64,000 nt of DNA from Rhizaria sp. SCN 62-66 (GCA_001724265.1 MEDY01000102.1:1-64000); one strand, 5' to 3'. Positions 18,647 through 50,531 are shown, numbered from the stretch's first letter. Numbers and translations: made by a program. Notes: a model not told the origin generated them from the sequence alone.

Positions 18647-20929
18647 TCACGGGTGGACAATGACGGCGCCCACAGGAGCGGCGGCGGCGTCGCGGAACGC
18701 CTGCCTGACGCGCGACAGCGGCACACGCTGCACCTGCACGGCGGGCACAAGGCCCTGCGCCGCGGCCACCAGCGCGTCCGAGAGCACGTGGCGCACGTCG
18801 CCCAGCCGCGAGGGCGCCAGCGCGTGCGCCAGCGGGCACAGGAACGCCACGCGCGCGCCGCGGAAGAAGAGCTGCGCCGAGCGCGCCGGGGTCAGCTCCA
18901 GGGCGCTGAGTGGTGGCGGGGGCGATGAAACACACAAAATGATTAGGTATGCGTGAGGGTGAGGGGTTATAGAGAGTTTAGCATTATCTTTAATATATAT
19001 AAACTTGATAACAGTATATATATCACGGGTTGGTTTGAATTTCGAAAACTAAGTTCAAAAGAAAAAGAAAGGAAACTGCATCGCGATGCCAAGAGGAATA
19101 GATAAGCGTGAACGTACCCATTTGCGACCACCCAGGTCGCGTGCGGCGCGAGACACGCAATAACGGTATCGGGTCCGACCGCGGGGCCCGCAGCGGCAGC
19201 GCGCGCGGCGGCGGCGGCGGCAGCGGTCACAGCCGAGCCACCGCCACGAATGGAGCCAGTGCTGCTGCTGCTGCTGCTGCTGCTGCTGCAGTTCGTGGCA
19301 CTAGAGGGCAAGTACGCCGACTCAAGCTTCGCCAGGCTAGCAGCGGTAGCGGCCGTACTCACGGACGCAGCAGGCGCCGCCACATGCGCCTTCTTAGCAG
19401 CACTAGCATCCACAGCTGCAGCTGCAGCTGCAGCAGCGGTTGCGTCGGCCGCAGTGGCATGCGCACCATTGCTCGCGCGCGCGTCGTCCTCATCCGGGTC
19501 CTCAAGTCCGCTGATGTCGAACGCACTCGCGCCGTCCGCACCGGCAGAGACCTTGCTGTCAGTCGCTCTACCAGCAGGACGCAATTGCGCCTGCGACTGA
19601 GCGCGTGCCTGGGCCGCAGCGGCGACCGAGGCCAGCGCAGCGCGCGCGGCGGGCGACAGACTACTGTCCAGCGCAGCCGCCGCCGCAGCAGCAGCAGTCG
19701 CCACGGCCGCCGCATCAGCGTCTACTCTCGCATGCGCGTTTGCGGTAGCGCTCGCAGCGGCGGAGGCGGCGAGCGCGTCAAACAGTGCCGCGCCGCTCTC
19801 CGCGCTCACCGCCCCGTTGCCCGCGCCCGCACCGGCGCCCGCAGCGCCCGCACCGGCACCAGCAGCGGCAGCTGCGGCAGCGGCGGAAGATGTGGCGGCG
19901 GTCGTGGCGGCGAAGGCGGGCGAGGGTGCCGAGAGGTCGACGATGAGGTCTGCGCCCAGCCCCGCGGACTCGGCTAGGACGACCGCCGCGAGGTCCGTGG
20001 CGCGCACATCAACGGCGCGCGCAACGGCGGGGCAGTCGGAGAAGAGGTTGAGCGCGGCCGAGGACGCGACGGCGACGACGACGCGGCAGCGCAGGCGTGC
20101 GGCGAGCAGCGGCAGTAGGGTGTCTGCGCCCGAAGGCGGCACGATCACCACGACAAGGCTGCCAGGGCGCAGGGACGAGAGCTGGTACAGCGCGGCGTAC
20201 GCGCGCAGGGCCGGCCACAGCAGCGCGGCTGCTGAGTCAAACGACAGCGCGAGCGCGGACGACGACGATGACGAAGATGAGGAAGTGGAAGAAGCTGCAC
20301 TCGTACGAGAAGTGGTGCCTGCGTCAGAGAACGAAAACCCTGTCAAATTGTTGCTGGCATTGCTCGCACTAACGGCCAACGCGCTATTGCTGGAGCTGCT
20401 GCTATTGGTGGTCGAGGCGGACACGGCGGAGAACGCGGAGGGAATGGGCGTGACGTAGGCGGCCGGGACGCAGGCGAACTAGCCGAGGCCGCCCGAGTGC
20501 GACTCTGCGGCCGGCGACGCAAGGGCAACCACGCGCATGCCGGGCGTAAGGTCCACAACGTCGGCGCCGACCGCGGCGACGGTGCCCGCAAAGTAGAAGC
20601 CGCCGACGCGCGGCGTGTCGGGCGAGGCGGCGGCGCGTGCGGGGGTGAAGGGGAGAAAAGCGCCCTGGCGGTGGTCCAGGTCGTCGGGCGTCAGCGCGCA
20701 CGCGTGCACGCGCACGATAACGTCGCTGGGGCCGCAAGTGGGCACGGGGTGCTGTGTATAAGGTATATCGAAACAAAACAGAGATGGTGGTGAGGTGCTT
20801 GAGTGATGCAAACAGGAGCAGTGAGATTGAAGCAAAGGAGAAGAGGGTGCGTACCGTTGTCGAGTACTGGAGCTCGTCATTGTAGCTGGTCAGCACTGCA
20901 GCCTGCATAAACTGCAATGACGCAGACAT
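18647..20929 (-). CDS. CRYZL1: Quinone oxidoreductase-like protein 1 (MDR family), about 655 aa (exons 20929-20855, 20751-19118, 18905-18647), with an internal in-frame TAG at 20481-20479
   Basis: VIVRVHACAL, FAGTVAAVG.DV...PG.RVV, LRAYAALY.L..LRPG, ESAGLGADLIVD, IACLAPHATWV and LELTP..S..LFFRGA.VAFL follow the CRYZL1 order on both sides of the TAG. Terminal stop is TGA. Confidence 0.8.
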
Positions 20930-21488
20930 TATTACTGTGTGAGAAGTAAAACAAAGGTTTTGGTATTACTGGAGGCGTGTCGTGGGGAGGAGGTGGGCAG
21001 GACAATGGGAGACTGACGTGAGCAAACGTATGACATTTTGTTCGAGGTATTGTGCATGACATATAAGGATTAGAAAGACTTAATAAACATATAAGCCGTA
21101 ATTTCAACTTCAATTTGTGAAACCACAAACCATATCGCTAACAACGGATGTTACATGTTAGGAGCAAAGTAGTCAGCGATGACATCACAAGAAGATATCC
21201 AAGGCTCCACTCCCAAAAGTAGCAAAAATGTGTGTATAAGATGATCTAAATAGCATTGATGAAGAGGTCAAGCGACGCACAAAATAAGGGCGCCGCGCTA
21301 TCTCGCACATAATAATTAATGAAACAAACACTGTTCGATCTTCAAAGCACAGATATGCGCTCACAGTACAGCAAATAGACAACAGAGTAACAATACAGCA
21401 CACAGAGACTGCGCACAACACGACAAACAAGAACAAACACAGCATGTACACATGAGTAACAAGGATAGATTGCGGCGTATCACCCCAC

Positions 21489-24400
21489 TCAGTTCAGCTT
21501 CACGTCGGCCGGGTCCGCGACCGCCCCGTTGGCGGCACCAGCGGCGGCGGCGGGTTCGTCAGTGGCGGAGCCCTCGGCGGCGGCGATCTGCTGGCTCCAC
21601 AGCGCCGCGTACTTGCCGTCGCGCGCAAGCAGCTCGTCATGCGTGCCGCGCTCGATGATCTTGCCCTGCTCCAGGACCAAGATCTGCTCAGCGTGCATCA
21701 CAGTGCTCAGACGGTGCGCGATGACCAGCGTCGTGCGGCCCTTCTCCAGGGAACGCAGCGCGGCCTGTGAACAAGAAAAAACAATGGGAAGATCATAATA
21801 TAATGTTACGTGAGCTAAGTCAATAAGTAAATACGAGTTATATACCCAAAATACAGTTTCAATACAGCAATACGTTTTGAATGAGATGATATAGCGGACT
21901 ATTTTGTTCGCAGCGACAACGTACCTGGATGCGCTGCTCGTTGAGCGTGTCGAGCGCGGACGTCGCCTCGTCGAGCAGAATGATCGGGGGGTTCTTCAGC
22001 AGCGCGCGAGCGATCGCAACACGCTGCTTCTCGCCGCCGGACAGACGCAGCCCGCGCTCACCGACCTTGGTCTCCCACTTGTCCTTGAGCGAGAGGATGA
22101 AGTCGAGGATCTGCGCGTCGCGGCACGCCTGCTCGACCTCCTCCATCGTCGCGTCGAGCCGGCCGTAGCGGATGTTGTACAGCAGCGTCTCGTTGTACAG
22201 CACGGCGTCCTGCGGCACCGACGACAGCGCCTGCCGCAGGCTGTGCTGCGTAACCTTGCTCGTGTCCTGGCCGTCGATCAGAATGTGCCCGCCAGTGGTG
22301 TCGTAGTAGCGGAACAGCAGCTTGCCGATGGTGCTCTTGCCCGCGCCCGTGGTGCCCACCAGCGCCGTCGTCGTACCCGGCGCGACGGTGAAGGACACGC
22401 CGTCGAGCCCGCGCCCGCTGCGCTGCTCGGGGTACGCGAAGCAGACGTCGCGGAACTCGATCGTCGCGCCGTTAGCGGGGTCCGTGAGGCGGAGCTCGGT
22501 GGCGTCGGGCGCGTCCTTGACGTCCTGCTTCACGCCCAGCAGGTCCAGCAAACTGGTCATGTCAGTCAGCGACTGGATCACCATGTCAAACACAGTGCCA
22601 AGGAATGACAGAGGGGTGAAGAGCTGCACGACGTAGGCGCTCACGGCACTGAAACGGCCGATTGAGAGCTCGCCGCTGGCGACCTTGGCACCGGCGACAA
22701 ACAGGGCCAGCAGCAGGCACATCTGGATGATGAAGCCCTGCAGAGTGTTCAGGAACGCAAGGGAGTACTGCGTCTTGACGTTGTATGCCTGCGGAGTGAG
22801 ATGGAAAAACAAGAAACATCAAACATATGTGAGCAAACGAAAAGAGTTGAATCTAAATCAAGATTCAAGACACCGAGAAAGAGCATGATTGGTGCAACGG
22901 TAAAATCGGACGTACCTGGTACTGCTTGATGGCATCGACGTAGCGTCCTTTCTCGAACTCCTCGTTGGAGAAGGCTTTTGCGGTCTCGTAGTTAATGAGC
23001 GAGTCGGCGGCCAGCTCGTGGTAGAGGTTGTCGTACATGTTGGTGCTCCGGCGGATGACCTTGCGCCACTTGGTGAGCTCAAACGTGCTGCAGAGGTACG
23101 CGGAGATGTGCACGAGCACGATGACCGACAGCAGCGGCTCGCGGAACACGGTCAGGAAGATGATGAAGACGACGAAGCACTCGACAATGCACGGCAGCAG
23201 GTACAAGAACAGGTACGTCACCACCGTGTCGGCAGCCAAGATGCCGCGGTCCGAGCTGCGCAGCACGGTGCCGATCTTCTTGCTGACGTGCCACTGTAGC
23301 GACAGCGAGTGCAGGTGGCTGAAGGTGTGCTGTGCGAGCTCCACGAACGCGTGCTGCTTCACCTGGAGGTAAATCGCGTTCTGCAGCTGCTTCAGCAGAA
23401 TCGAGCCGAAGAGGAAGCCGCAGTACAGCGACAAGTAGCCGTACGGCGTCGTCTCCTCGCTCGTCAGCTGGTCAACGGCCATGCCAATGAAGAGTGGCGC
23501 GATGATTGAGAAGACCTTCGACGCGACAAGCGCGGCCCAGGTAAGCGCGACCTTGACGCGCGGCATCACCCCCTCGGGCCAAAAGTACGGCCGCAGCAGC
23601 GTCGACAGCTCGCTGTAGCGCCACGCCTCCTTCTCCGCCCGCGCGCGCGCGGCGGCTGCGTGCTGCAGCTCAACCAGCTCGGCGGCCTCCACGCGCCGCG
23701 CCTCGCGCGCCTCGTGGTCGTGCAGCGCGTTGCCCGACAGGTGCCGCGCCTCAGCCGCCGCGCGGAGCCGCGCCTCGTCGTTGGCCGCGAGCCGCTTGGA
23801 GCGCGCCTCCAGCTCGGGCTCGGGGCCCGTGCCCCACTTGTCGGGAATGTGAGGGGCGAGCATGACGGCGCCGGCGCACTCGGCCGCGCAGCACAGCGTC
23901 GTGAGCAGCAGCAGGAACGTGTAGCCGCCGTTGGCGCCCGACCAGTCCCACACGACGAGCTTGCAGATGAGCAGCAGCAGCGAGATGAGCGTGACCCAGT
24001 ACGCGCTGATGGGCGCCCAGCGCGACGCGGAGCCCTCGTAAGTGACCGAGTAGAGGAACCAGAAGAAGACGGCGGCGCGGGCGAGCACAACGAAGAACAC
24101 GTCGAAGAGCGCGGTGCCCATTTGCCAGTGCGTGAGTTCATCGCGGCCCATCGACGCCAGGTCGAACCCGTTGATCGAGAGGTAGATGAGCGTGAAGAGG
24201 AAGAGCTCGCCCGAGACGACGTAGCGCGCATAGGTCCAGCGCTGCGTGAACCGCTCGCGGCACTCAGTGATAAACGCGTCGTCCACTGCGTTCGGGTCAG
24301 GCTTGTTCGCGGGCGCAAAACTATCTCCGGAGCGCGGCGACGGGGCGTTCGAGTGCGATTGCAACTGTGACTGCGCGTGTGCGCCGCCGGACTGCGCCGG

Positions 24401-24727
24401 GGAGGTCGCAGAGGAGGACGCGCGCGAGGACGCTTGCGGCAAGTAGGCCGACGAGGGCAGCGAGCCGCGGAACGACATGTTGGTGTCGGCGCGGTTCAGC
24501 GATGACGGGGTTGAGCCGGTGCGCGGCTGACCCTGCGCGGCGTGGTGGCCGGCACTGTGGCCGTTGGTGTTGTGGCCCCTGCTGTGGCCGGCGTTGATCG
24601 AGTGCGCGGGGGCGGCGGCGGTGGGGGAGGGTGCGGTGGCGTCGTCGTCCTCTTTGAAGACGGCGTAGTCGGCCTTCTTTGACCCCGCGGTGGGTTTATG
24701 GGAGCTCTGGCTCCCGTGAGACGCCAT
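21489..24727 (-). CDS. ABCB6/HMT1-type half-size ABC transporter with an extra N-terminal TM region (exons 24727-22916, 22788-21925, 21764-21489)
   Basis: [37 protein letters not shown], Walker [10 protein letters not shown], signature LSGGEKQR, Walker [11 protein letters not shown] and IAHRLST. Stop is TGA. Confidence 0.92.
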
Positions 24728-25256
24728 AGAGACGCCGCGGGCTGATCAGGAAGGAAGAAATAAAAGAGGACAAAGTGAAATCGTTGAGGAATGTGTGAGC
24801 GGTGAAATGAGTCATCGGGTCGAGTGTAGCCAAAGCGATCTAGTCCCATACGCAGGGATAGATACAGCTGCTGACAAAACATACAGCAAAATAAGTCTAA
24901 GTTGAGTGTGTAAATTGCATAACGCGCACTTTCTCACCAAAACAGCTGGTTTGTGTAGGATAAAAGCAGTCTTTCCGTTGCGCAGTTCCTGTTTGTCCGG
25001 ATCGGCATTTTCGCGGAAGTTGTCGGCTCCCGAAAAGAAGTGATATGAACGACAAATAGAGTGTCTGAAGTCGTCATTTTCGATATATTGACAATTTATA
25101 AGCATGTACTTCGATTGTTATCTCATATTGGTATTGACGGTGCTTTGATCGAGATCTCACATTGTCTAAGCTCCATGTTCTCGAAGCTCTTCCGTCACGT
25201 CGCAGCCTCCATCCACGTGACCCACACTCGCTGCTGCCCCCAGCGATACTCAGCGG

Positions 25257-27446
25257 ATGTCACTCGTTGAGTTGACCCGTGTGGGGCCAAGTTACTTCAT
25301 CTGGAACCATGCTACGGCCGAATTTGTTTCACGCTCCCACAATATCGTCCTTGAGGCCCCTTTCACCACAAACGCCTCGGTAACCACAGCGTCTTGTCCC
25401 GGGCGCGATCGCAGTGCTCGTAACGCTGCCCCAATTCCAGACGTTGCGACTGACGATGTCGCCGACAACGAGACTACTAGTAGCACTGACCAATTGCTCC
25501 AAGCGCCCCCATTCGCACTCTCGCCAGAACAGGCCCGCTACTTGATCCGCATCGGCGTCGCCCACATTGCTACTGATGAAACTGCAACGCAGGCGGTTGC
25601 CAGAACTGACGCAACCGTGGCACACGGGAGCGAAACCAGTTCGGGTTGCGTTGCCGTGTCTGTGGATGTTGTGGCGCGACTGGAAGCACAGGTCAGTGCG
25701 TATTTAAGCACGTTTGCAGACTCTACGCTAGCTGCTGTGGCCAAGGCTGCAGAGGGTCGCGCCCGCGCCCAGGCCCAGGTCCAGACCCGCGCGCGCGCTG
25801 CCGCCGCTGCTGCTGCTGCTACTGCTGCTGCCGCTGCTGTTGCTGCTACCAACACTGCTGTTGCTGACGCAAATGACGCTTTGACCACGACTGTGGACAA
25901 AAGCTGCAACGATTTATCACCTGAGACAGTCGCGTCTGAAGGATCACCAGAGTCTGGGTCTGAGTCTGTGATCGTGACTGCCACGGTGACTGCGACGGCG
26001 GCTGCGACGGCGGCTGCAGAGACTGCAACTGCGGAGACTGTTGCCCACAATGACAGCGTGCAGATTACGATTACAGTCCTCCCGCCGCCGCTGCCTGCAA
26101 ACGCCCTGTTCGTCCGCGTCCCACTCTGCGCCGCCGCAGTGTGTAGCGACCTCGACTACCTGCTTGCACTCGCAGTCAGCGCAGTCGTACAACACGCTCG
26201 CACGTGTGTGCCGAACACTGTCACAGGTGATACTGCGCCTGAGAGCGCGGCCCAGCTGTGGCAGCGGGTGTCGCCCGTGTTTCAGCTGCCCGCTGCCGCT
26301 GACGTTGCTGACGCGTACGTTCGCTCCGAGAAGCTTGGCCAGACTGCTGCGAGCCAGGGTGATAATCGCAGCTGTGAGTGCAGCAGTGCAAGCGCCAACG
26401 CCGTTGCATACGCCACGCGGCGCCTCACATCGCTGAGGGCGGGCGCTAGCGCCTTGTCTCAGCAGCCGGACCTATGGCGCCACCTTGGGCGCGCCCTAGC
26501 TGCCGCGGGGGCGTTTTCAACAGCGACGACGCCGACACAGTTAACTAATGATGAGTCAAATGGCGCAGATGTGGCGAAAGTGATCAACCGTTCTGCTGCC
26601 GCCTCCAGCGCGGCGGCGGCTCCCCCTATTGTAACGAACGTCGGAAACGGCGCATTCATTGCTGTACCGACTGGGGCGCCTGTCACAAAAACTGGTGTGT
26701 TGACCAGTGACGCCACACATGCAGAGTCTACTGTCACAACAGAGACGCTGCCACCCACGCACAAGGTACGCTTATGTCCATTCATCTCACCGACTCGGTC
26801 ACAGGTCACAAGCGGTTTACGGACCCCATCGTAATGTGTTGATGCAGCTAACGCACAATTTTCTATTTGTGCTCTTGTTTTGCTCTTTGTGTGTGTTTTT
26901 TTCTAGGACTGTGTTTTCGGCGATCTGACAGCGCAGGGGCTGTTCTTAGGCTCAGGCGCCTCGTTCGGTGCGCACTATCTGCTCTACACACGCCCGCCCG
27001 CGGCCGTACACTCGGCCGCGATGCTCACGGTCACGGACTGGGACGAGGGCGGTGAGGACGCAAACAGTGAGACGGGGCAAAGGGGGCAGACAGTCTTGAG
27101 GGGGCAGGATATTGCTGCAAGGTACGACGAAAGAACTCACATCTCATAGCAACGTGTGTACATATATAACGACGTTATATTAAGACGACACTTTAGCTTC
27201 GCGCATCTTGTATTTGTATGGTCTTTAATAACCCATCATGACGACTGTCCCTGCATTTGGCTCATAACGATATTACGTCTTTTGTCCCATTTTTAAACCC
27301 ATAGTATGCGCGTGGCAACCAATGCGCACAAGCGTTTTGTGATGGCTGCGCCTTTCTCCTCCTCAACAAACGTCAAAGACAGTGATTCCACGGTAGCATA
27401 TTTCACGTTTGAGTGGGACTCAGCGATGTCAGCCGTGCCGCTGTAA
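25257..27446 (+). CDS. TSEN34: tRNA-splicing endonuclease catalytic subunit Sen34 (exons 25257-26765, 26907-27121, 27305-27446)
   Basis: N-terminal YFIWN...HNIV and PFALSPEQARYLI..G. Spliced C-terminus VFGDL...GLFLGSGASFGAHYLLY.RPP...HS...RVATNAHK...YFTFEW retains the Tyr/His/Lys catalytic triad. Stop is TAA. Confidence 0.8.
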
Positions 27447-28022: not shown

Positions 28023-30815
28023 ATGTCCACTGCCTCTTTGATGGAGTCGAGGGCAGTTGAGCCTTCTGGCGCTGCTTACGCTCGTCTCTCCGACGACGAG
28101 GATTTGCGCGCTCCTTCGCAATCCCCCTCCAAGCTATCTGGCGAGTTTTCCTCTGCTGAAGTCCAACCTGCCAATCTTCCTCCGTGGCACCGCCGTGTGT
28201 ACCGCTCCCTGCGTCGCTCCGTGCGCGGCGTCGTGCCGGTCCCGGTGCGTCTCGTCTTCATGCTGTTGAGCGTCAGTCAAGAGATGCCCGTGACGGCCAT
28301 TGGTTACATCCTCACCAACGACCTGAAGTTCGGCCCCGAAGAGCTGTCGTCTTATTACCTGGTTACCTACACCGCGTGGCTTTTCAAGCCCCTATACGGC
28401 TTTGTGTCCGACAACTTCCCCATCCTCGGCTACCGTCGCCGCCCCTACATCATGATCTTCTCCGTCGTCACCGCCTTCATCTTCTTCGCGATGTCGACCT
28501 GGGCGCACGACCACCTACTCTTTACCGTGCTTGGTGTTGCCAACGCGGCCGCTATTTGTTTTGCCGAGGTCATGATGGACGGCGTGTCGACGGAGCTGGG
28601 CAACGAACTCAAGCACAAGCTACGACAGCGCGACGCCAACGCCATCCTCCGCGCCCGCCGCTTCGAGCAGCAGGGCGCGGGCGCCGACGGCCAGCTCGTC
28701 GACGGCGAGTGCGAGTGCGAGTCCGACGGCGAGGGCCTGCTCACGCTGATGCCTCCCTCGAGCCACGGAGCGATCGAAGGCCACGAAGCCGACGGCGGAC
28801 TGCTCTCGCCGACTGCTGAGACGGCGCACACGATGGGCGACATCGCGATCTCGGCCGCGCCCGGTCCGCACGACCGCGCCGCGGCGTACTACGACATCCG
28901 CACGCTCGACACGGTGCGCGCGCACGACGCTCACGGTCACTGTCACGCCCACAGTCACGAGCACGCTCACGCGCTCGCTCTTAAGGACGGCTCCAACGCG
29001 CAGAGCCACGGCGCAGGGTCGCTTGAGGGCGACGCCGTGGCCGCCGCCGTGGCCGCGGTCGGCACCGTGTCTAGCTCCTCCTCTGCCGCGGACGCTGAGA
29101 ACGCCAAGAACGCTGCGCTCGAGGCGGCTGAGCGCGTGCTGCTGCCTCCACACGCGCGGACGCAGGTCGCCACCGGCACGATGCGCGCGCTCGACAAGAG
29201 CCTGCGCCGCGACGCTCAAAATGGCGACGGCAATGGCGTCTGTGTCAGCGGCAGCGGCGCCAAGTGTCGCGGCGGGCCCAAGTGCCGCCGCGGCGCCGGT
29301 GCGGCGCCAGGCGTGTCGACCTCGGGCAGCATCAACTCCGACGCCGACTCGGACAGCAACGACAACAACGACCTCAAGAAGAGCAGCAGCAAGGTCGGCT
29401 CCTGCAGCGGCGGCGCGCCCCCGCACTCGTGTAGCGTTGTCGCCGACGCCAACGACGGCTCTGGCACGCCCCTCACCGAGGACGAGGAGGACGAGCAGAT
29501 CCTCATGGCGGGCCTGTCCGCCTCGACTGCGCGTGCGTCGATCCAGGCCGAGTGCATGACTGTGCGTTCCTTTGCGTCGCTGCTGGCCGCTGCGGCCTCA
29601 CTGGGCGTGCTCTACTTCGCGACCCCGCGCGCTCTCGTGCTGGGCATGATGGCCGTGCCCATCGTCACCATCGTCGTCGCGCGCTGGGTCCCCGAGACCT
29701 CGCGCCGCGTTGTCGGCGCCGACGTGACTCGCCACGCGCAAAGCGACGCCGAGGCCGCGGCGCTGGCCGAGGCCGATGCCGAGCGCGCCGCGTACCCCTG
29801 CTGCGCTGACTCGATCGACGCCATGATGGCCGCAGAGGCCGCCGCGCTCAACGGCGGTGATAATAGCATTGGCAACGCCGACGCTTCTTTGAATGCCGCT
29901 GGCGCCCCCGCGCTCGACATGAGCAACGGCAGCCGCGCCGCTGTCGACGGCGTGGACCCCAGTGCGCTGTACGCGTCGCGCCCGCGCCGCCCACGCGTGA
30001 CGTGCTGCTCGTGCCGGCTCATCGGCCGCCTGCTCTGGTTCCGCACCAAGGTCGTGCTGCGTGCGATGCTGCTGCTGGCGCGGCCCGTGATCTTTATGTT
30101 CGTCGCCAACGCGATGCCCACGTCGACGGACTCGTACTTCGGATACATGTACTCGCTCTCGTACCCGGTGTGGATGTACTCGTTCTTCACCTTCGTGTCG
30201 CTGCTCGGCGCGTTGCTCGGCTCCATGCTCTACTGGAAGGGCTTCTCGCGCATCTCGCTGCGCAAGGTGTTCGTCATCGCCACTGCGCTGTCACTCGTGG
30301 CCTCGATCCCGACGCTGCTGTTCGTGTCGGGCTACGCGCACGACCACTGGGGCATCTCGCACAAGGTCGCCGCGCCCGTGGCCAACTTCTTCGGCGCCGT
30401 ATTCGGCCGCATCGTGCTCATGCCCACGGTTGTGCTGGCCGCCGAGTCGGCGCCGCCGCACCTGGGGCTCGAGTCGACGATGTTCTCCGTCTTCACGTCG
30501 GTGTCGCACGCGGCGTCGTTCGTGTCGTACGCCATTTCGGTCGCCTTCATCCGGTACTTTAAGCTGACGTGGGAGGATTACAGCAACCTCACGCCCTTTA
30601 TGCTTGTGTGCATGGCTTTCACGCTTGTCCCGCTGCTGGGACTCCCCATCCTCCCGCGCGCGAACGAAGAGGACCTGCTGGCCAACGAAGTCACCGTCCA
30701 GGCCCTGCTCGGCGCCGACGCGGTCACCGCGCCGGCCAAAGGGCAGCAGCAGCAACAACAGCAAGAGGATCTGAAGCAGAGTCAGCAGCAGGTGAGCACG
30801 AAGGTGAGTGTGTAA
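28023..30815 (+). CDS. BT1-family folate/biopterin transporter (MFS) with large loop insertions
   Basis: Family signature WLFKPLYGFVSDNFPILGYRRRPY, FAEVMMDG, MPTVVLAA...P...LESTMFS, and multiple TM segments. Stop is TAA. Confidence 0.88.
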   Translation: MSTASLMESRAVEPSGAAYARLSDDEDLRAPSQSPSKLSGEFSSAEVQPANLPPWHRRVYRSLRRSVRGVVPVPVRLVFMLLSVSQEMPVTAIGYILTNDLKFGPEELSSYYLVTYTAWLFKPLYGFVSDNFPILGYRRRPYIMIFSVVTAFIFFAMSTWAHDHLLFTVLGVANAAAICFAEVMMDGVSTELGNELKHKLRQRDANAILRARRFEQQGAGADGQLVDGECECESDGEGLLTLMPPSSHGAIEGHEADGGLLSPTAETAHTMGDIAISAAPGPHDRAAAYYDIRTLDTVRAHDAHGHCHAHSHEHAHALALKDGSNAQSHGAGSLEGDAVAAAVAAVGTVSSSSSAADAENAKNAALEAAERVLLPPHARTQVATGTMRALDKSLRRDAQNGDGNGVCVSGSGAKCRGGPKCRRGAGAAPGVSTSGSINSDADSDSNDNNDLKKSSSKVGSCSGGAPPHSCSVVADANDGSGTPLTEDEEDEQILMAGLSASTARASIQAECMTVRSFASLLAAAASLGVLYFATPRALVLGMMAVPIVTIVVARWVPETSRRVVGADVTRHAQSDAEAAALAEADAERAAYPCCADSIDAMMAAEAAALNGGDNSIGNADASLNAAGAPALDMSNGSRAAVDGVDPSALYASRPRRPRVTCCSCRLIGRLLWFRTKVVLRAMLLLARPVIFMFVANAMPTSTDSYFGYMYSLSYPVWMYSFFTFVSLLGALLGSMLYWKGFSRISLRKVFVIATALSLVASIPTLLFVSGYAHDHWGISHKVAAPVANFFGAVFGRIVLMPTVVLAAESAPPHLGLESTMFSVFTSVSHAASFVSYAISVAFIRYFKLTWEDYSNLTPFMLVCMAFTLVPLLGLPILPRANEEDLLANEVTVQALLGADAVTAPAKGQQQQQQQEDLKQSQQQVSTKVSV

Positions 30816-31772: not shown

Positions 31773-33098
31773 TTACATGTGCGAGTAACTGTTTGCCGCG
31801 GGCACGCCCGCGCCGGCCTGGTAGCCCGGTGAAGAGTAGAACGACTGCTGCGGCGCGAGCCCGGGCTGCTGCTGCTGCGGGGACGCAAAGCCGCCCTGCT
31901 GGCCGTAGCCGGGGCCGTAGCCCGGGCTCGCAAAGCCGGGCTGGCCGCCGTAGCCGCCAGCTTGCCCGCCGAGCCCCGCGGGCGTGGGCTGTGCGTACCC
32001 CGACGCGCTTGCTTGCAGCCCGCCCGCGCCAGCCGTCGCCGCGCCGCCGCCCGGCGCCGAGGGCGAGAAGACGAGCTGGCCGGGCTGCATGTGCATGTTG
32101 ACGCCGCCGTTGTACCCCACGTTGCCGGGCGCGGCGCCGGGCGCGCCAGTGTAGGGCGAGGACGGCGCGCGGCCCATGCTGGGCATCGGCGCCGCGGCGC
32201 CGGGGAGTGCGGACCCGGTGACCTGGGGCGCGGCGCCGAGCCCCGAGACGGAGCGCGCGACGTCGCCGTTGGCCACGATACTGTTCTGCGCGTCGAACTG
32301 CGCGAGTGCAACCCAGAGGTTCTGCGCCTCCGAGATCGAGTCGATAGCGTTGAAGTTGTTGAGCGCGCGCGAGAGCGTCTCGAGGCACTGAGCGTGGTAC
32401 GCCAAGTGTGAGCGCAGCACGAAGTTCATCTTGTTCTTGAGCAGCTCGAGACGCGCGAACTCAAACTCAAGCATCGACGCGTTGAACGACATCTCCGTCT
32501 GTGCCATCGAGTCCAGCTCGGTGGCGTGGCGGCGCTGCATCTCCGCGGCCTCGGGCCCGCCGACCTTGATCTGCAGCTCGCTGAGCTTCTTGCCCGTGTT
32601 CTGGAGCTGCGAGAACTGCTTGCGCCGGTTCTCCGCCTGGCCGCGCTGCGTCGACAGCGTCGAGTCGAAGGCCTTGAGGTCGGGCAACACGTTGACCTGT
32701 AGCTGCGAGCTGAGCTGGACGACGGACTGGCGCGTCTTGGACCACTCGGTGTTGACGTTGGCGAGCGCAGCCTGGAACTGCGTCGAGCGCTCCACAGTCG
32801 CCATGTCTGAGATGCGGCGCATCGTCTCGCTCGTCGCCTCAAAGTCGCCTAAAGGGAAACAAACGCGAAATAGGTCGAATATAACGTAGAGTAGATTATA
32901 TGTGGGTTAGACTTAAATTTGAGGACATGGCACGGCATGGTAGAGTGAAACGTTCAAGTGGCACAGAGACAAGGCAGTGGTTGAGCTCGACGTACGCTCG
33001 AGGACGGAGCACATCTCACCGATGTGCTTCTTCATCTTGTTCTGGCTGCGGGAGACGTCCGCAAACAGCTTCTCCACATAATCGCTCTTACCGTTCAT
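31773..33098 (-). CDS. FAM92/CIBAR-like BAR-domain protein with a Gly/Pro/Gln/Tyr-rich tail (exons 33098-32996 and 32848-31773)
   Basis: Three-helix coiled-coil region ending FEFARLELLKNKM...HLAYHAQCLETLS.A..NF.AID, which resembles FAM92 helix 3. The GTACGT...TAG intron restores the frame. Stop is TAA. Confidence 0.65.
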
Positions 33099-36347: not shown

Positions 36348-39300
36348 TCAACCCTGCAGCACGTAGTCACGCGGCTTAATTTCTGCGCCCTCGAGCCACT
36401 GCGCGGACTCGAAATAGGAGCCCGTGAGGTTGCGGAAGCGCAGAATAGTCGCCACGAGCGCGCGCTGCATGCGCATCTGTCGCGCGCGCGCCGACGCGGC
36501 CACCGCGTTGCCGGCGCCGCCCGCTGTGGGGCTCTGCAGCTGCTGCGCGAGTCCCTCAGCGCCCTCGGACGCCGCGCCCGGGAGGATACCCGCGGCGACG
36601 GCGTCGGCGGCGGCGCCGTCCTCGTCGTCCTGGCGGTTGAGCAGGCCCTGGCCCGTGGTGCCGGCGAAGTCGTCCGCCACGGGCTTGCGCAGCAGCTCGT
36701 CCTGGAACGGCTTGTAGAGGCGCAGGTCGGGCAGCGACGGGTATGCCGCATCGAAGGCCTTCATCTGCGCCAAGCGCTCTTGCGGCACTGTGTCGGGGCC
36801 GGAGAGCTTGGCCAGCAGCTTCTTGCGGTGCTCGCGGCGCACCTGGTTCTCGCGCACGAGCTGCAGCAGCGTCTTGCCGCTGTTGGGGTCGGACCCAAGC
36901 TCGGCGATGTGACGCACGACGACGTCAATGAGGATCGGCAGTGCGACGGCGACGGCGATAGCGAACCAAACGGGACCCGACTGGAAGAGGCGGAAGATGA
37001 CGCCGTAGAGCGTGGCGTTGAAGTCAGGGAACACCGAAAGCATGATGGCGACGAGGACAAGCGTGACGATTGAGAAGACTATCGACAGCGCGTGTAGCAG
37101 AGTCACACTCGACATGTCCAGCACGATCAAGAACGTCGCCAAGAATACGATCGAGATGTACACGGCGGCAGCGACGGTGTAGAGCCCGTGGTCGCGGCCG
37201 TCCTTGTTGGCGACGTTGTCCACGGAGAGAGACACAAACGCCACAAAGAAGACCATCGCGGCGTGGCCAAACGCGCGGACGACCCAGATCACGTACTTGC
37301 GGCGAGAAAACAGCGGTTGCATGCGGAGCGAGCGGTACACCTCGGGGTTGTTCTCAAGCGTCTCGCGGTCCACCACGCGGTCCAACACGGCCAGGCACAT
37401 GATCGGCGCGGCCGTGAAGAGCACGTTGAAGAACTGGTACAGCGGCTCGTTGAACAGCTGCTGGCCAGAGAAGCCGGAGAAGAAGCCGAAGTAGTACATC
37501 GTAAGCGCGACGAGCGCGGCCTTGTAGAAGACGTAGTAGATGAGGAACGACACACGCGCGTAGCACCACGCGCCGTGCACGAGCAGCAGCGTGTGCAGGT
37601 GCGAGAACTGCGCGATCGCGTAGTCGGCCGCCTTGACCGCGGCCGCGCCTTCGACGCCAGACACGCCGACGCCGACGTGCGCGGCCTTGATCATGAGCTC
37701 ATCGTTCGCACCGTCGCCGATCGCGAGAGTCACGGAGCCCTCGAACTCGCCCACACGCTTGCGCGCGGCCTCGATCTCGCGCTCCTGCGCCTCGACCAGC
37801 TGCGCCTCGAGCGCCGCCAGCTCAGCGTCGGTCACGCCGCCAGGCACGGCATCACTGACACTCCCGTTCCCGTTGCCATTGCCGTTGCCGCCGCCCGCGT
37901 CGTGCGCGGTGGCGTTGGCGGCGCGGCGCGCGGCGCGGGCGGCCTTGATGCGGCGCACGCGCGTCTCGAGCGAGACGGCGTCCTGCGCGGTGTGGTGCCA
38001 CACCTGCGGGTGCTGCATCGTCACCTTGCAGCGCTCCGAGAGCTCGCGCACCATGCGCTCCTTCATCGGCGGCTCCGCGCCCGCGAAGACGACCGACTTA
38101 CACGCCGACGCAAGCTTAAAGAAGTGGTACTGGAGCGCCGTGCGCTGCGCCTTAGAGACGGACAGATCGAGCGTCGCGCGCGGCGGCGCCGACAGCGACG
38201 GCGCGGGCGACGACAGCGACGGCGAGCCCATCGCGGGCGACGGGAGCGCAGGGGAGCCCAGCGACGGCGGCGCGGCCGGGGACGCGAGCGGGCCCGCAAT
38301 GGTGGAACCCGGCGTGCTGTAGGCGCCGCCCACGGCGGGAGACGCCGCGGAGGCCGCGGCGGCGGCGGCGACGCGGTCTGCGCGCGCCATGAGCCGCACG
38401 GGCGGGCAGATGACGGCGAAGGCTTCGCGCGTGACAACGAGTGACACAGGGAGCCCGCGCGCGCGCATGAGCTCGGCCGTGCGCAGCGACTGCATGATGT
38501 CGATGGCGACGGCCTCGAACTGCGAGACCTGGACCTGCTTCATGAAGGCCTGGAACTCGCTGAGCGTGAGCCGCCCGTCGTGGTCACCGTCGTACATATC
38601 GAACAGCAAACGCATCGAGTGCGCCGCGGGGTGCTCCGTCGGCAGCGTCGCCGGGCCCGCGCCGGCGCCAGACACGCCGCTGTTGCCGTGGGCCGCCGCG
38701 GAGCTGGTGTTGTCGTCGGAGATAACGCCCAGGCCGGAAAGCATGACGATGAGCGCGTCGAACGACAGCGTCACCACGTTGGCGGGCCCCGCGGTCGGGC
38801 TGCCAAGTCCGCCGCTGCTGCTATTGTTGCCGTTACTCGCGTTCGTGTTGTTAAAGCGCGTGGTGAAGTAACTGAAGAGCTCGTTGAGCACGGCGTCGTC
38901 GCCGGCCAGCCGCGCCCACTCGCCGGACACTTCCAGTACGCGGTTCTCTTTGTACGCCGCCTCGACAAGCTCCAGCGAGTCGCCCCCAGCGCGACCCCCA
39001 CCGGCCGCGGTGCCGGCGCCGTTGCTGGCGCCGGCGACTGCGGTGATGTCGGGCATCATGTCTGGGTCGATGAGGCAGCACGCCATGGCGATGTTCTTGG
39101 CCGTGTCCTTCTTGTCGCCCGTCAGCATCCACACCTTGATGCCCGCGCGCAGAAAGTCCGAGATGGCCTCTGGCGCGAGGTCCTGCAGCTCATCCTCCAG
39201 GCCCGACGCGCCCAGCAGACACAGCCCGGCAGAGCGCTCGATGTCCGTCTTGAGCTCGTCGAGCGCATCCTTGGCCTTCTTCTCGCTCTCGGCGTCGTTG

Positions 39301-43361: not shown

Positions 43362-46300
43362 ATGAGCGTTCCCACGGCCGTCGCCGAGCTCCCGGGCCTC
43401 ATTTTCGAGGTCCGCGTGGACCTCTCGCACGCTCCCGTGCCCTCTGTGCAGCACTACAAGCGCTCCGACACGGTGTTCCTCACCGTCTCGCTCGCCGAGT
43501 CCGTGCCCATGCTGCACTACACCATCAAGTCGGACCGGCACCGCGAGGCGCGCCAGGCGCCTATCATCTCCATCCCGGCCGCCAACATCAAGTCGGTTGA
43601 GGCCTCGTGCGAGCTCTCTGACGTCTTTTCGCTCGAGTTTACCGGCTCTGGCGCCAACCGCGCGCACACGTACCGCATTCACCACCTGCTCACCGGCGGC
43701 GGCGGCGCGCGCTCGCTCGACCGCGCGGCGCTGCTCACGCTGCTCCAGTGCGCTGCCCGTGGCTCTGCGTACGCGCGCGCCTTCGCGGCCCACAACTTCG
43801 GCTTCCCGCAGCGCGATGTGCTGCTCACTGAGGCCGTCAAGAAGCGCGGCTCCGTGCTGGGCAGCTCGGATCGCGTGCTCATTCTCACGCCCCACGCGCT
43901 GCTCGTCCGCGAGCGCCCCGCGGACGTATTTCCCACGGCCGCCTACCCGCTCTCGGCCGTCTCCGTCTCGGCAAAGGGCAGCGCCGACCTGCGCGTCGAT
44001 CTGCCGTCATCCGACTCACTCGCTCGCCCCGCCGCCGCCGCCGCCGAGGCCGCGGGCTCTAGCTCGGGCTCTGCCGCGCTCGCGGGCGTCAAGCTGGAGC
44101 CGCACTCGCTGCTCTTCGCCTTCCCCGAGCCGTCCGTGCGCGACGACTGGCTCGCTGCAGTCGCCGGCCTCACGCGCACGCTGCTGAACACCGCCGCGCA
44201 CACGCGCTTCGCCCGCGGCGAAGCCGGCGCCGTCGCGCACGCCAACGGCCCACTCGAGGCGCCCGGCGCCGGGCTGTGGACAGTGGAGCAGGTCGTGCAC
44301 ACGGTCGACGCCAAGCTCGCCGCGCGCGCCGCCAAGGCCGCCTCGAAACAAGCCGCCGCCGCGACGGCCGCCGGCATCACTGCTGCGGCTGCGGCTGGCG
44401 ACGCGAGCGTGGCCGCGACCGAGTCTGCGCGCGCCGCCGCGGTGAGCCCGACGCGCTCCTCGCTGTTCCCGCAGCAAGCGCCGGCGCAGAACCAGTTGCA
44501 GCAGCAGCTGCTGCAGTCGCAGTCATCCTCGTCCTCCTCGTCCTCGTCTTCTGCGACGGCGACGGCGGCGGCGGACGGCGCGGCGCTGGCCGCGGGCGGC
44601 AAAGGCTCGCGCAGCAAGATTTTCAGCATGCTGGGCACTGACGAGGCCGGTCTGTCGCGCAACCCGGAGGAAGTGAGCCGCGAGTTCCGCTCCCGCATGC
44701 GCGCCGCCGTCGACTCGAGCGGGCCTGCGCCAGACGCGTACTACCGCGTCCGCAGCGGCAGCCGCGGGCCCGCGTCCGCCGCGGACGGCGGGTCCGCGGC
44801 TGTGCGGTCCAACTCGGCCGCCAGCGCGCACAGCAACAGCACCGCCACCGCGGGCGGGGGCAGCAGCGCGGCCGCGGCGCAGCGCGACATGCTGGCGATG
44901 CTGGGTCCTCTCGTTGGCGGCTCCTCCGAGGCCTCCCAGGCGCGCAGCAGTAAGGGCAGCAAGCCCGCACGCGTGGCCACGCGTACCTCGTCGCCGCCCC
45001 CCGGCCACGGCCGCAATGGATCGCCGCAGCAGCAGATCAGGTCGACGGGCCCCGACGCCGGGAGCGCACTGTACGTGGACCCGGAGCGGCTGTACGTCAC
45101 CGCGGAGCGCAAGAAGCGCCAGGAGCGTACCACCGACAGACTCACCGCCGCCGAGCTCGCCGCCTCACCGTCTAACAGCAGCAACGGCAACGGCAGCGGC
45201 AACGGCAGCGGCAGCGGCAGCGGCGCGGGCACACCAGCGAGCGCCGCTAACAGTGCGAACAGAAGCCAGGGTGGCGTACGGCACAGTGTGCTGCCCTTTG
45301 CGCTGGCGTCCGACCCCGAGGCCGCGCTTACGGGCTCGCCGCTCGGCCCCTCCGCGCGCTCCATCTCCGGCGCACACGCCCACAGTCACTACGGGGCTCG
45401 CGGTCACCACGCTGCTCACGGTCACTCTGCCCACGGTCACCACGCTGCCCACGGTCACCACGTGGGTCCCGTTGCGGTCGCGACGGACGCGTCGGGCCTC
45501 GTATACACGCTGCCCAGCGCGCCCGCGCACGGCACCGCGCGCGACGCGCGGTCTCCTGTCGCCGTGGTCCGTAACAGCCGCTACGTCGAGGGCCGCGCCG
45601 CGTCCGTGCTGCCCATGTCGCCCCACAACAACGGCCACGGCCACGGCTACGGTCACCAGCAACAGCAGCGGGTGGGCACGGTCGTGGGCACGCGTGGCAG
45701 CGTGATGACGAGTCCGCGCGCGGGCAGCCACGGCGCCAGCGGCTTCGGTGCCGCGCCCATCACGCCAACCGCCGTGAGCTCCACCGGCACCGGCGCAGGC
45801 GCCGGCGCAGGCGTCCGCGGCAGCGTCGTCGCCAGCGGCGGCGGGAGAGGCCTGCGCAGCAGCAAGGGCGCGCGCGGCAGCCTCGCTATGAGCACGGCCA
45901 GCGGCGCCGGCGCCACTGCGGGCACGGAGAACGGCAGCGACGCCGGCTCGTCCCCGAAGCAGCGGCAGCGGCGCCGAGCGCGCGGACAAGGGCGGGACTC
46001 GGTCGACTCGCCCTCGGCCGCGCCGCTGTCGGCCGCGTCGCTCGCCACGGGCACCGACTGGACCAGCGACCTCGCAGCCGCCGCCGCAAACTCTCCCAGC
46101 ACGCCCGGGAGCGCGGCGGAGACCGTGGCGGCGCAGGGCCCGCGGCGCAGCGTGGCCGCCATCGCGTCCGCCGCGGCCGCCGCGCGCGCCGTGTCGCCCA
46201 ACGGCCAGGGCCAGGCGTGGTGGGCCGCCGCCGCCGCCGCTAGCCCCCGCGCGGGCGGCGGCGTCGCGCCCGTGTCCGTCCCCGACGACGGCGACGACAG

Positions 46301-49300
46301 CGGCGACGGCAGCGACGGGTCCGACTGCGTCGTCGTCGTCGATAACATCCCGCAAAACGCCGCCGCCGTCGCCGCGGCCGCTGCGGCAGCGTCGGCGGCC
46401 GCCGCGGCTCAGGCCAAGGTCGCGCGCCCGCTCGTCTTCTCGCCGCCCGCCGCCGCCGCGGGTAACGCCGGCTTTGTCACCACCCCGGTCACGTTTAGCG
46501 TCCCAACGCCTGTGTCTCTGTCTGCGCCTGCACCTGTGGCGCAGGCGATGCCCGCGCCTGCTCCCGTCTCCGTCACCGCGCATGCGCTTGTGCCCGCGCC
46601 TGCGCTTGTGTCGGTCACTGACGTCTCGGTGGTGTCCCCGGTGCCCGCGCCTGTCGCGGCCGCCAGCGCACCCATTGCAGCAGTCCATGCCGCACCGGCA
46701 AACGTGTTGCCGGTGCTTGCTGTGGAGGCGCCCGTGGGCGCGGTGCCCGAGTCGCGGCGCCGCAGCAACGCGCCGCTGCTGCCGCTGCCGCCCACTCCGC
46801 CCACGGCGCCCGCCGCGCCCGCCCCTCAAACGCAGACGCAGACGCAGACTCTCGCTTTGACGGGCACGCAGTCGCAGACAGAGCCGGCGCAACTGCCAGT
46901 CCCGCCGCGCCCGGCCCGCGCCCCCGCCACAGCCACGGCCACAGCCTCGTCCGTCGCTGTCGCTGCGACGATGAGTGCGGGCGTGGGTGTGAACGACGGC
47001 GCCGCCATGGCGGGCGAGACCAAGGACGGCGATGAGGCCGCCGCCGCTGCGTACCCGCGCACGTCTCCGTCCCCGTCGCCGGTGCCGTCGTCGCAGGCGC
47101 CCTCGCCGCCGCTCCCGCTCTCGCGCGCTGCCTCCAATGTCTACAACAGCAACAGCAGTAGCGGCAGCGTTCTGAAGCCCAGCGCCGTGGAGCTGGCGCT
47201 GTCTGCGCAGTCTGGCGCCGGCGCGGTCCTCGTCGCGCCCAGCGGCGCCGCGTACCCAGCGCCCGCCGACGTCGCCGCCGCGCTCGCCGGCACGCCGCTC
47301 ATCGCCGCCAACGTCGCCACTGCCAGGTCCGGCTCCGGCTCCGGCTCCAATGCGCAGAGCACACAGCGCAGCGCGACTGCTGCGGCAGTTGATGTGATTG
47401 TCGCAGCGAGCGTGCCGTCGGGCCCCGAGGCGCCGCTGCAGAGCTCGGCCAACCCGTCGAGCTCCGGCGTTGCCAGCAACGGCGCTGTCGACGGGCCTAA
47501 GGTTATCGCACGCGGCCGCACGCTGACCACGTTCAACGCCAGCGGCGGGAACGGGTCGATCGGCGCACACCATGCGACCAGCGGCGCCGCCGCAGCCGCC
47601 GCAGCCGCCGCGGCCGCCGCGGTCGCGATCAACGCCGGCGCGCACGGCCACCAGTCTGGCCGCGCGTCCCACAGTGCGCATCATGCAGTGTACGCGCAGA
47701 GCGCGCCCGAGGTGCCGGTGTCGCCCGCGGCGCCGCGCTCGCACTCAGGCATGATGCCGCCCGCGCCCGCGCGCCGCATCGTCCCCACGCCCGCGCCCGC
47801 GGCTTCGACTGCGCCCGTGCCGGTGCCTGAGGGCGATGATGATGACGACGATGAGCCGCCGCCGCCGCCGCCGATGGACGACGACGACGATGACGATGCG
47901 CCGCCGCCGCCGTGCCCGCCCAGCGACGACAGAGAGCCCGACTCTGCGGGCAAGGCGAACGCGGCCGCTGTTAACGTCGACGAGCATGATATCGACCTGC
48001 CTCCGCCGCCGCCCCCGCTCCTCACCTCGCCCGTCGCCGCGCCCACGCCCGTCGCGCTCGCTGCCGCACCGCCCAAGCCTAACCCGCGTCCCTCGCCCGA
48101 GCTCGCTGTCGCCACCGCTGCCGCCCCGCCTACCGCCACTGCTGCCGCTGCTGCGGACACTGTGTCTGCGACGGGTGCAGTCGCTGCGGAGTCGGAGCCG
48201 GAGGACTTAGTGGTGATGACCTTCGTGCTGCCGCCCAACTGCATTCTGCGGCCCGACCTCGCCGCCGCCCCAGCGCGCCGCCGCGGGCCCGCGCGCCCTG
48301 CCGGCCCCACGCCGACTGAGGAGCAGCCGCTGCTGCCCTACCTGGTGTCACCTCCGCCCAACGAGCCCGCGCCCACGGTCCGCGTCTTCACACTCATCTA
48401 CCCCGCCGAGGCCGCCACCGCCGCCGCCGCTGCCGCAGCCGCTGCCGGAGTCGGAGCCGCGAGCAGTAACAACCATGAGAACGCCGCGGATGGCGCTGGT
48501 GGCCGTTTGCCGCCGCTGCCGAAGCCGTACGTGCTGGACACGCGCACGCGCGTCGACTTAGGGCAACTGCAGCTGGCGCTGCCGCTGCCGGTGTGCGACC
48601 CGCGCGGGCGCTCGCTGCACCTGGTGATGCCGCCGCCCGGCGTGGCTCTGCCCGAGAACTTCCTCCTGGCGTCGAACGGTGTCATCTACTGCTCCGTCGG
48701 CGGCTCTGCCGAGGACGAGGCCGACTACGAGCTCGAGGTCAAGGGCACAATCCCGGGCGCCGAGGAGTCGCTCGCGCTCTATTTCACCGAACAAGAGCTC
48801 GCCACCGTCGCCAGCAACGCCGCGGCCGCCGTCGAGCAGGCCCAGGCCGAGGAGGAGGCCTGGGCCATGGCCGAGGCCGCTGCGGAGGCGGAGGAGGCGC
48901 GTGCGATCGCGGCCGCTGAGGCTGCGGAGGCCAAGGCCATTGCCGACGCCAAGGCTAAGGCCGACGCCAACGCGGCGGCGCGCGCCGCCGCCGCTACGTC
49001 TGCCGCCGCTAAGGCCGCCGCGCAGCGCAGCTTCATCAACGCCACCGCCGCTGCTGACGGCGACGACGACGACGACGACTTCGTGCCGCCCCCGCCCTCG
49101 GACCCCGAGTTCGATGGCGCCACAGCGGCGGCCAAGTCTGCCGTGTCGCCTCGCAGCGGCGCCGCGGTGCCCGCGCGCCCGCCGCGACCCGCGTCCACGC
49201 CCACCGCGGCCGGCGCGAGCGGCGCCATGGCCTACTCGCCGTCGGACTCGCCGCTCTCGCGGCCGGCGCGCCCGCCCAAGCCCGCTGGCACGGTGGCGCA

Positions 49301-50531
49301 GTCGCTGTCGCAGGCGCGCCTTGCTACCGCCGTGGCCGCGAGCGCGGCGGGCGTCGCGCTCGTCGCTGCCAGTGTGACTGGCGCTGCCGACGACGATGAC
49401 GACGCACCGCCCGCGCCTCCGTCTGACGACGCCGACGCCAACGCCGCGGCCGCTGCTTCTGGCGCCACGTTTGAGCCCGAGCCCATGTCCCTGAGCACGG
49501 TACAGTCGCACCCGCACTCGCAGTCGAGCGACTCGTCCGCCCGCTCGTCGCCGCCCCCCGCTTCCACTTCCGTCTCGGCCTCGGCCGCGGCCGTCGCCGC
49601 CGCAGCCGCCGCGCGGTTTGCGACTGTGGCGCTCGAGGGCAGTGCGCAGCCGATGGGGCTGGTGGCGCTGAGCACGCTGCCGCCCGCGGCGCCGCTGTCG
49701 GCGCTGCGCGACGCGCTCGAGGACGAGGTCGACGACCTGCCCGCGGACTGGGTGTTTCTGCTGCGCGGCGTCAAGGTCGGCCGCAAGCAGGAGGCCAAGC
49801 TTACGCTCGCGCACCTCCACGAGGCTGCCGCGGACGACGCCGCCGCCAACGCTACAGCTGCTGCTGCCGGTGCCGGTGCGTGTGAGCCCGCGGGCGACGT
49901 CGTGCGCGTCGTGATCCGCGACACGGCCGCTGCAGCCGCGGCCGGCGCGGGCGCGGCGACGCCCCTCGTCGCGTCCACGCCCGCGGCCGCCGTGCCGCGC
50001 GCGCCGACGCCGCCCCCGATGGACCTCTTTGGCGACTCGCTCTTCGGCCCCGGGCCCATTGCGCCCGCCGGAGGCTCCGCCGTTCGCGCGGGCGCGGGGG
50101 CGGGCTCGCTCGCCAGCGCCGCCGCGGCCGCCGCAGCCTCGCGCACCGCCGCCAGCGCCGGTAGCGCGGCTAGAGGCCCGTCGCGCCCCGCGCCCGGCGC
50201 TGGCGGGGCCCCCTCGCGCGCCGCGCCCCGCGCCGGCGTCCAGGGCCGGCGCTGCAGCAGCCTGCTGGTCGCGCAGGGCTAGGCCGCGGCGCCCGTGGAC
50301 CTGATGTCGGCGCTTAAGACCTTCTCCAGCGGCGCGCGCGCGCTACGGCGCACCTCAGTGCTGCCCGGCTCGCGCGCCATGGCGCCCGCGGACCAAAGCA
50401 AGGGCATGCTGGACAACATGGTCGGCGGCGAGCAGAACATGCATCGTGCGCTGCTGCGTGCCATGGCGGAGCGCAGGCCAGCGATGGTGATCGAGAACGA
50501 CGATGTCGCCGACGAGGAGTGGGATGACTAA
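43362..50531 (+). CDS. Large putative Arp2/3 nucleation-promoting factor (PH domain, low-complexity and Pro-rich regions, C-terminal WH2-C-A), with an internal in-frame TAG at 50280-50282
   Basis: PH-like region (VLLTEAVKKRG...RVLILT...FAFPEPSVRDDWLAAV) and poly-Pro/acidic blocks. Directly after the TAG and in the same frame: DLMSALKTFSSGARALRRT (WH2), MHRALLRAMAERRPAM (C) and ENDDVADEEWDD (A). Terminal stop is TAA. The start codon is uncertain. Confidence 0.75.

Follow-up and report, generated by a model that had tools for sequence, protein, structure and literature searches.

The 64,000-nucleotide stretch analysed here (Rhizaria sp. SCN 62-66, assembly GCA_001724265.1, MEDY01000102.1:1-64000; hereafter the window) comes from the nucleus of a GC-rich eukaryote. 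Its G+C content is about 54-76% across 2-kb bins, its exons are long, and its introns and spacers are AT-rich. Because the segment 15500-25499 recurs in bioreactor, wastewater and activated-sludge runs of seven studies, the source organism is an uncultured wastewater protist. Two genes of the window, one for a CRYZL1-like oxidoreductase and one for a long low-complexity protein, are each interrupted by a single in-frame TAG codon. Both codons lie where the first-pass annotation of this DNA had placed them, each right behind a GGC codon (Table 1). Our tentative interpretation, to which we assign a probability of about 0.45, is that UAG is translated organism-wide as Glu or Gln, either as an incipient reassignment or as a leaky stop.

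The first TAG is residue 104 in the translation of window:18967-20790(-), in which Pfam places the ADH_N domain at residues 20-117. An earlier homologue search was dominated by low-complexity words and gave two weak matches. A HMMER search with the CRYZL1-like exon returned 717 matches at E<=1e-3, and 24 homologues, chosen from the 150 listed, were aligned with it. At the column of the TAG these homologues carry Glu (21 sequences), Gln (2) or Asp (1), and the alignment is gap-free on both flanks. The frame stays open for 503 codons past the TAG; an AT-rich intron, the last exon and the TGA come next. Matched by eye in the same alignment, the last exon fits the conserved C-terminal block of the homologues. 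Representative homologue matches reach query residues 182-287, the second domain; ADH_zinc_N was not reported by Pfam. With ADH_N, a Rossmann-type domain and the C-terminal block, the product is predicted to be an MDR/zeta-crystallin-like (CRYZL1-type) oxidoreductase, in agreement with the identity first proposed. A second lesion (stop or frameshift) was looked for in this gene and none was seen apart from the TAG, which cannot be spliced out because conserved residues would go with it. If translated, the codon most likely means Glu, then Gln, the two residues that had been thought to fit best at this site; the column argues against Leu. Pyrrolysine and selenocysteine were considered for this position and were ruled out by the conserved Glu column and by the codon being UAG in a eukaryote.

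Coding also continues through the second TAG, since 72 of the 82 tail codons past it end in G or C (hand count), the TAA follows, and AT-rich sequence begins right past this TAA, as it does past other genes. No second stop or frameshift was seen in this gene when looked for. By eye, and at the level of motifs, the tail has a WH2-like, central and acidic-tryptophan arrangement, with a basic LRRT-type motif and an acidic Trp-bearing end. It thereby resembles the WH2-central-acidic tail of WASP-family nucleation-promoting factors, a likeness that Pfam and the PDB did not return: a PDB sequence search with the tail gave nothing of note, the best match being a phage baseplate protein (E 0.53). The long protein as a whole matched no Pfam family, and its PH-like leads in the Atlas were all below the 0.9 threshold. 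The name "PH...WCA protein" given in the first-pass annotation is thus a lead, its tail motifs being seen by eye. A metagenome scan with the tail found no relative. As for read-through forms of this gene, only a 75-residue fragment was found among proteins of 71-228 residues and nothing at 229-2000 residues, both weak negatives.

The two TAG codons are reproducible in other assemblies. Contigs of sequencing runs, not raw reads, were compared with the window over 10500-30499. The contig shared by runs X2 and X3 covers 19299-20674 and differs from the window at one letter, away from the first TAG; the contigs of these two runs are identical and are therefore counted as one data set. A contig from a 2025 study (X4) has single-nucleotide polymorphisms at 20638 and 20659 and spans at least 20443-20833, as calculated from distance-to-end values. 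None of the differences listed, 40 of 74 in all, falls at 20479-20481, and the first TAG is presumably present in this contig. The second TAG is carried by a JGI contig whose EMG1 is 100% identical. In addition, the 88-residue open reading frame (ORF) ending at the first TAG is present on 1+6 contigs and the 75-residue ORF past the second on seven, from JGI/IMG, Logan and ENA. The TAG alleles are the assembled form in samples of 2015 to 2025 from several studies, and strains diverge by only about 0.2% (one X4 contig has 6 differences over 2798 bases). Such a comparison is able to detect errors in the window, because it exposed one in the eL43 gene (17639-18003, plus strand). This gene is frame-broken at 17943/17944, where a polyA-RNA contig of run X6 (depth 23) has 33 additional letters; with these, a conserved stretch of eL43 is complete again. 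The fit of the X2/X3 DNA contig likewise ends at 17943, and the break probably reflects a deletion made when the window was assembled. Neither TAG is an error private to this assembly.

Gene ends were determined from stop-to-stop ORFs compared under the standard code, with TAG as Gln, and with TGA as Trp; five ends were read directly. The 20 ends checked omit some gene models, for example the last exon of a methyltransferase gene at 33912 onward. Fifteen of them are TAA, five are TGA and none is TAG (Table 1). The lack of TAG ends had been noted in the first-pass annotation, which counted 14 TAA and 8 TGA among 22 ends. It had also noted a lack of internal TAA and TGA, and neither was seen in frame in the large exons of the window. 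TAG is not rare by composition, because it is plentiful in non-coding frames, introns and upstream regions; the antisense frames of the P4-ATPase gene, for example, contain nine each, and another TAG lies within an AT-rich intron at 15800-15802. Two long TAG-ended ORFs were examined and rejected: 82..1527(-) is an antisense shadow of the CCT gene, and 14378..15802(+) enters an AT-rich intron and is not a gene end. The chance of finding no TAG among 20 ends is about 0.01 if TAG has a 20% share of stops and about 0.12 if it has 10%. UAG is thus absent from gene ends, as in a UAG-sense code, at a statistically weak 0 of 20, and the terminator count by itself is only suggestive of a change in UAG.

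Relatives of the organism were found by a metagenome scan with EMG1. One (L002, EMG1 89% identical) is syntenic for the LC8, EMG1 and TPH genes, and all three of its ends are TAA. Another GC-rich relative (L007, EMG1 74%) has one TAA and one TGA end. These two relatives have no TAG and four TAA among five ends; together with the window, the GC-rich group has no TAG among 25 ends, and TAA is dominant. In a third relative (L005/L003, EMG1 79%, G+C about 52%), two of six genes end in TAG, namely a mitochondrial-carrier gene and a 1144-codon gene, and TAG is therefore a normal stop there. The EMG1 gene itself has an intron of about 155 nt (about 52316-52470) past its first nine codons. This intron is absent in L002 (1119-1200) and was gained or lost between the window and this relative.

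Table 1. The two interrupted genes and the gene ends checked in the window.
Feature	Position	Strand	Basis or remarks
First in-frame TAG	20479..20481	-	Context GGC-TAG-TTC; exon 2 of the CRYZL1-like MDR oxidoreductase gene
CRYZL1-like gene	18647..20927	-	Short exon 1 (about 20850-20927), long exon 2 holding the TAG, last exon 18650-18880
TGA, CRYZL1-like gene	18647..18649	-	Read directly
GroES-like ADH_N domain across the first TAG	20440..20733	-	PF08240, E 2.5e-11, profile positions 1-103 of 104
Second in-frame TAG	50280..50282	+	Context GGC-TAG-GCC
Long low-complexity protein gene	43362..50531	+	About 2390 codons from first plausible Met, open through the TAG to TAA
Tail after the second TAG	50283..50528	+	82 codons, ends EEWDD
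TAA, long low-complexity protein gene	50529..50531	+	Read directly
TAA, CCT chaperonin subunit	1417..1419	+	ORF comparison
TAA, SRP72-like	4973..4975	+	ORF comparison, Pfam
TAA, GNAT acetyltransferase-domain protein	5538..5540	-	ORF comparison, Pfam
TAA, NTF2 plus RRM (G3BP-like) protein	8126..8128	-	ORF comparison; identity by eye
TAA, PG_binding_1 plus YkuD protein	10403..10405	-	ORF comparison, Pfam
TGA, multi-exon gene with TBC/RabGAP-like motif	17290..17292	+	ORF comparison; motif by eye
TAA, ribosomal protein eL43	18001..18003	+	Read directly
TGA, ABC half-transporter	21489..21491	-	Pfam; end read directly
TAA, 537-codon ORF	26832..26834	+	ORF comparison
TAA, BT1 transporter	30813..30815	+	ORF comparison, Pfam
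TAA, 377-codon ORF	31773..31775	-	ORF comparison
TGA, P4-ATPase	36348..36350	-	ORF comparison, Pfam
TAA, dynein light chain LC8-like	51366..51368	-	ORF comparison; identity by eye
TAA, EMG1/NEP1-like	53105..53107	+	ORF comparison; identity by eye
TAA, TPH-domain protein	53701..53703	-	ORF comparison, Pfam
TGA, FOP/LisH protein	57677..57679	+	ORF comparison, Pfam
TAA, thioredoxin/PDI-like	60289..60291	+	ORF comparison, Pfam
TAA, Lys/Arg-repeat protein	62207..62209	+	ORF comparison; N-terminal hydrophobic stretch like a signal peptide

The case for translation of UAG is made by two clean, reproducible, single-lesion interruptions, the conserved Glu column, the absence of TAG ends and the GGC-UAG common to both sites. 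If the sites are unrelated, we estimate the chance of this shared context at about 1 in 20. We suggest that UAG would be an inefficient terminator in this organism and that ribosomes would decode it as an amino acid, with Glu or Gln the likeliest, giving full-length products of both genes that end at the TGA and the TAA. The decoding agent may be a tRNA with anticodon CUA, or a near-cognate tRNA-Gln or tRNA-Glu acting alongside an eRF1 whose recognition of UAG is weak. Such a state would be incipient or leaky and not mature, UAG being gone from gene ends and very rare within genes, and the codon may be tolerated only in some contexts, such as the GGC-UAG seen at both sites. A more specific version is that UAG is at an early, ambiguous stage of change from stop to Glu/Gln, that TAG ends were purged in the GC-rich subclade and that the first sense UAGs are emerging only where GGC-UAG forms a permissive context; we regard it as possible, though less likely than not. 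The claim of the first-pass annotation that UAG is decoded as sense is partly supported, in that both TAGs are real, coding, reproducible and unspliceable and no gene ends in TAG; it went further than these results in making the change organism-wide.

Several observations weigh against translation of UAG. Among roughly 16,000 codons TAG is internal just twice, once each in 2 of about 22 genes, and in this 64-kb sample in-frame UAG does not occur in a large share of conserved genes as it would under a mature UAG-sense code. A settled Glu or Gln codon should be much commoner. Rarity on this scale is compatible only with an early or inefficient state, for which the prior is lower. The absence of TAG from 20 ends is weak evidence because TAA dominates and the earlier share of TAG may have been low. 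Since codons ending in G or C dominate (about 88%), most one-step nonsense mutations would probably produce TAG, and the occurrence of TAG twice and of TAA or TGA never would be expected under plain mutation too. At the second TAG, the metagenome scan and protein searches found no homologue to align, so no residue is assigned there, and the tail matched no Pfam family at E<=1, which keeps its domain name at motif level. Neither a sense-codon nor a read-through form of either gene was found in protein collections, and no listed RNA contig lies over either TAG. The nearest piece, from the polyA run X6 (20539-20854), ends short of the first TAG; it is unspliced, has a depth of 3.2, and shows neither expression nor decoding. 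Within the 64-kb window ARAGORN found no tRNA gene, hence none with anticodon CUA, and Rfam gave no match; the eRF1 gene lies outside the window.

An alternative is the standard code: we regard it as quite possible that both TAGs are recent nonsense mutations that became fixed and that the absence of TAG ends is chance under a strong preference for TAA. A dispensable CRYZL1-like gene would then carry a null allele (GAG to TAG), and the long protein would be truncated before its last 82 residues. The first TAG is a single G-to-T step from GAG, the Glu codon implied by 21 of the 24 homologues, and the G/C-ending codon usage would make TAG the commonest nonsense outcome. TAA accounts for 15 of 20 ends in the window and for 4 of the 5 ends of L002 and L007, and internal TAG occurs less than a tenth as often as in the described UAG-sense organisms compared. 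Because strain divergence is only about 0.2%, a recent pseudogene would still look intact. In addition, the window was chosen by scanning many windows, which favours coincidences. However, in a compact genome, finding two clean pseudogenes with one lesion each in a set of about 22 genes has an estimated probability of 1e-3 or less at typical pseudogene rates, and a second lesion was seen in neither gene. Nonsense mutation also has to accommodate TAG alleles that are the assembled form over a decade of samples (2015 to 2025) in several studies, and TAG ends at 0 of 20 here vs 2 of 6 in L005, and it leaves the GGC-TAG common to both sites unexplained.

It is improbable that the code is otherwise standard and that these two genes undergo programmed readthrough, in which local signals would allow some ribosomes past a UAG that normally terminates. 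According to this explanation, the long protein would be made as a short isoform and a tail-bearing isoform, and a truncated major form with a tail-bearing minor form would be biologically sensible at the second TAG. The GGC at the -1 codon of both sites fits such a signal, and the sites are like those of readthrough by near-cognate tRNA in that single UAG codons stand within otherwise open frames. They differ from these in having no shared 3' context or downstream structure: the base 3' of the stop is U in one case and G in the other (UUC vs GCC), and the 102-nt segments that begin at the TAGs show no better folding than shuffled sequences do (z +1.26 and -1.41). Moreover, the first TAG falls within an enzyme-domain core rather than ahead of a C-terminal extension, and a stop at this codon would leave just part of the GroES-like domain. 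The absence of TAG ends is not explained by this mechanism.

It is very unlikely that the TAGs are sequencing or assembly artefacts with GAG or CAG as the true codons. The first-pass annotation had raised this concern because both sites follow GGC, a motif known to provoke sequence-specific errors in Illumina data (PMC3141275). Contigs are covered at a low depth of about 5-8x, and the window has a defect in eL43. However, as that study describes them, GGC-linked miscalls are one-directional and usually repeat the one or two bases just before them (PMC3141275), which here are C and G, not T, so the concern is not supported. The same TAGs also recur in assemblies made independently from separate runs, years and sources, and no read-through form was found in protein collections. 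Least probable of all is that a tiny GC-rich intron or RNA editing removes or alters the TAGs before the mRNA is translated: introns exist in this genome (in the CRYZL1-like, ABC, TBC and EMG1 genes, for example), but those recognisable are AT-rich and tens of bases to about 150 long whereas both TAGs lie in GC-rich sequence, homologues align gap-free across the first TAG, the nearest GT...AG pair (25 nt) would shift the frame, and we know of no nuclear U-to-C editing of this kind.

Among the other genes of the window, the P4-ATPase, BT1 transporter, SRP72, ABC transporter, thioredoxin/PDI-like, TPH-domain, FOP/LisH and YkuD proteins were recognised by Pfam, and the CCT subunit, eL43, LC8 and EMG1 by eye. 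Scans of genome and viral contig sets with the CCT subunit, made for flanking sequence, found nothing. The product of a eukaryotic gene at 10403-11686 (minus strand) combines a hydrophobic N-terminal stretch with peptidoglycan-binding (E 5.8e-10) and YkuD L,D-transpeptidase (E 1.1e-6) domains; this combination is of bacterial type, and horizontal transfer is possible. The P4-ATPase (36348-42728, minus strand) is very long, with 2126 codons and long Ala/Ser-rich inserts, and its cytoplasmic region has an EF-hand match at residues 1372-1399 (Pfam scores below the gathering cut-offs). The N-terminal part of the ABC half-transporter (22865-24745, minus strand), upstream of the ABC membrane region, matches MENTAL, a cholesterol-capturing domain, with a score above the cut-off (E 1.6e-6). 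The gene at 61076-62209 (plus strand) has a signal-peptide-like start and consists mostly of 33-nt units, repeated in tandem, that encode Lys, Arg, Gly and Ala; on the opposite strand, two frames over it likewise stay open beyond 380 codons. Over 12288-12481, one X4 contig disagrees with the window at 19 listed positions, mostly spaced by multiples of three, and looks like a related species or a paralogue under purifying selection in the same sludge. At 27413-27415, in a spacer, the X2/X3 contig omits one base and inserts an A two bases later, a small strain or assembly difference.

To our knowledge, reassignment of UAG only, with UAA kept as a stop, is found in few eukaryote lineages. The rhizarian exLh reads UAG as Leu, with 384 UAG codons in 71 genes that end only in UAA (56) or UGA (15), and Iotanema spirale reads UAG, and only UAG, as Gln (PMC5304391). 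The window is like exLh, so described, in having in-frame UAG within genes and only UAA and UGA at their ends. It differs from exLh in having just two internal TAGs in about 22 genes, in a sample of only 64 kb, in the meaning of the codon (Glu/Gln rather than Leu) and in the GC-rich genome. The exLh and Iotanema cases rest on transcripts and eRF1 comparison, the present one on DNA. In phyllopharyngean ciliates UAG has changed to Leu or Gln, internal UAG occurs in 78-91% of genes, UAA is the preferred stop, relatives still stop at UAG in 10-30% of genes, and suppressor tRNA genes were found in two genomes (PMC11687900). The retention of UAG stops in a relative is paralleled here by L005, whereas the 2 of about 22 genes with internal UAG and the lack of a tRNA gene in the window are unlike the ciliates as described. 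A ciliate code in which UAA and UAG specify different amino acids shows that UAG can be uncoupled from UAA (PMC10553269). UAA is also sense there as described, whereas TAA is the main terminator here. In that ciliate UAG is reportedly Glu, the residue favoured at the first TAG.

The UAG-only cases compared here all look mature, with UAG spread through most genes (PMC5304391, PMC11687900). We found no published report of a UAG change in a wastewater eukaryote or in a GC-rich non-ciliate eukaryote, supplements lying outside this search. In practical terms, gene prediction breaks each of the two genes at its TAG, and what public protein collections contain is fragments only. If the TAGs are plain nonsense alleles, the finding is ordinary. 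If UAG is translated, a GC-rich non-ciliate would join the known UAG-only changes and would be unusual among them for its very low use of UAG. The organism would then represent a natural intermediate with close relatives that still stop at UAG, in which the codon-capture and ambiguous-intermediate models could be tested directly.

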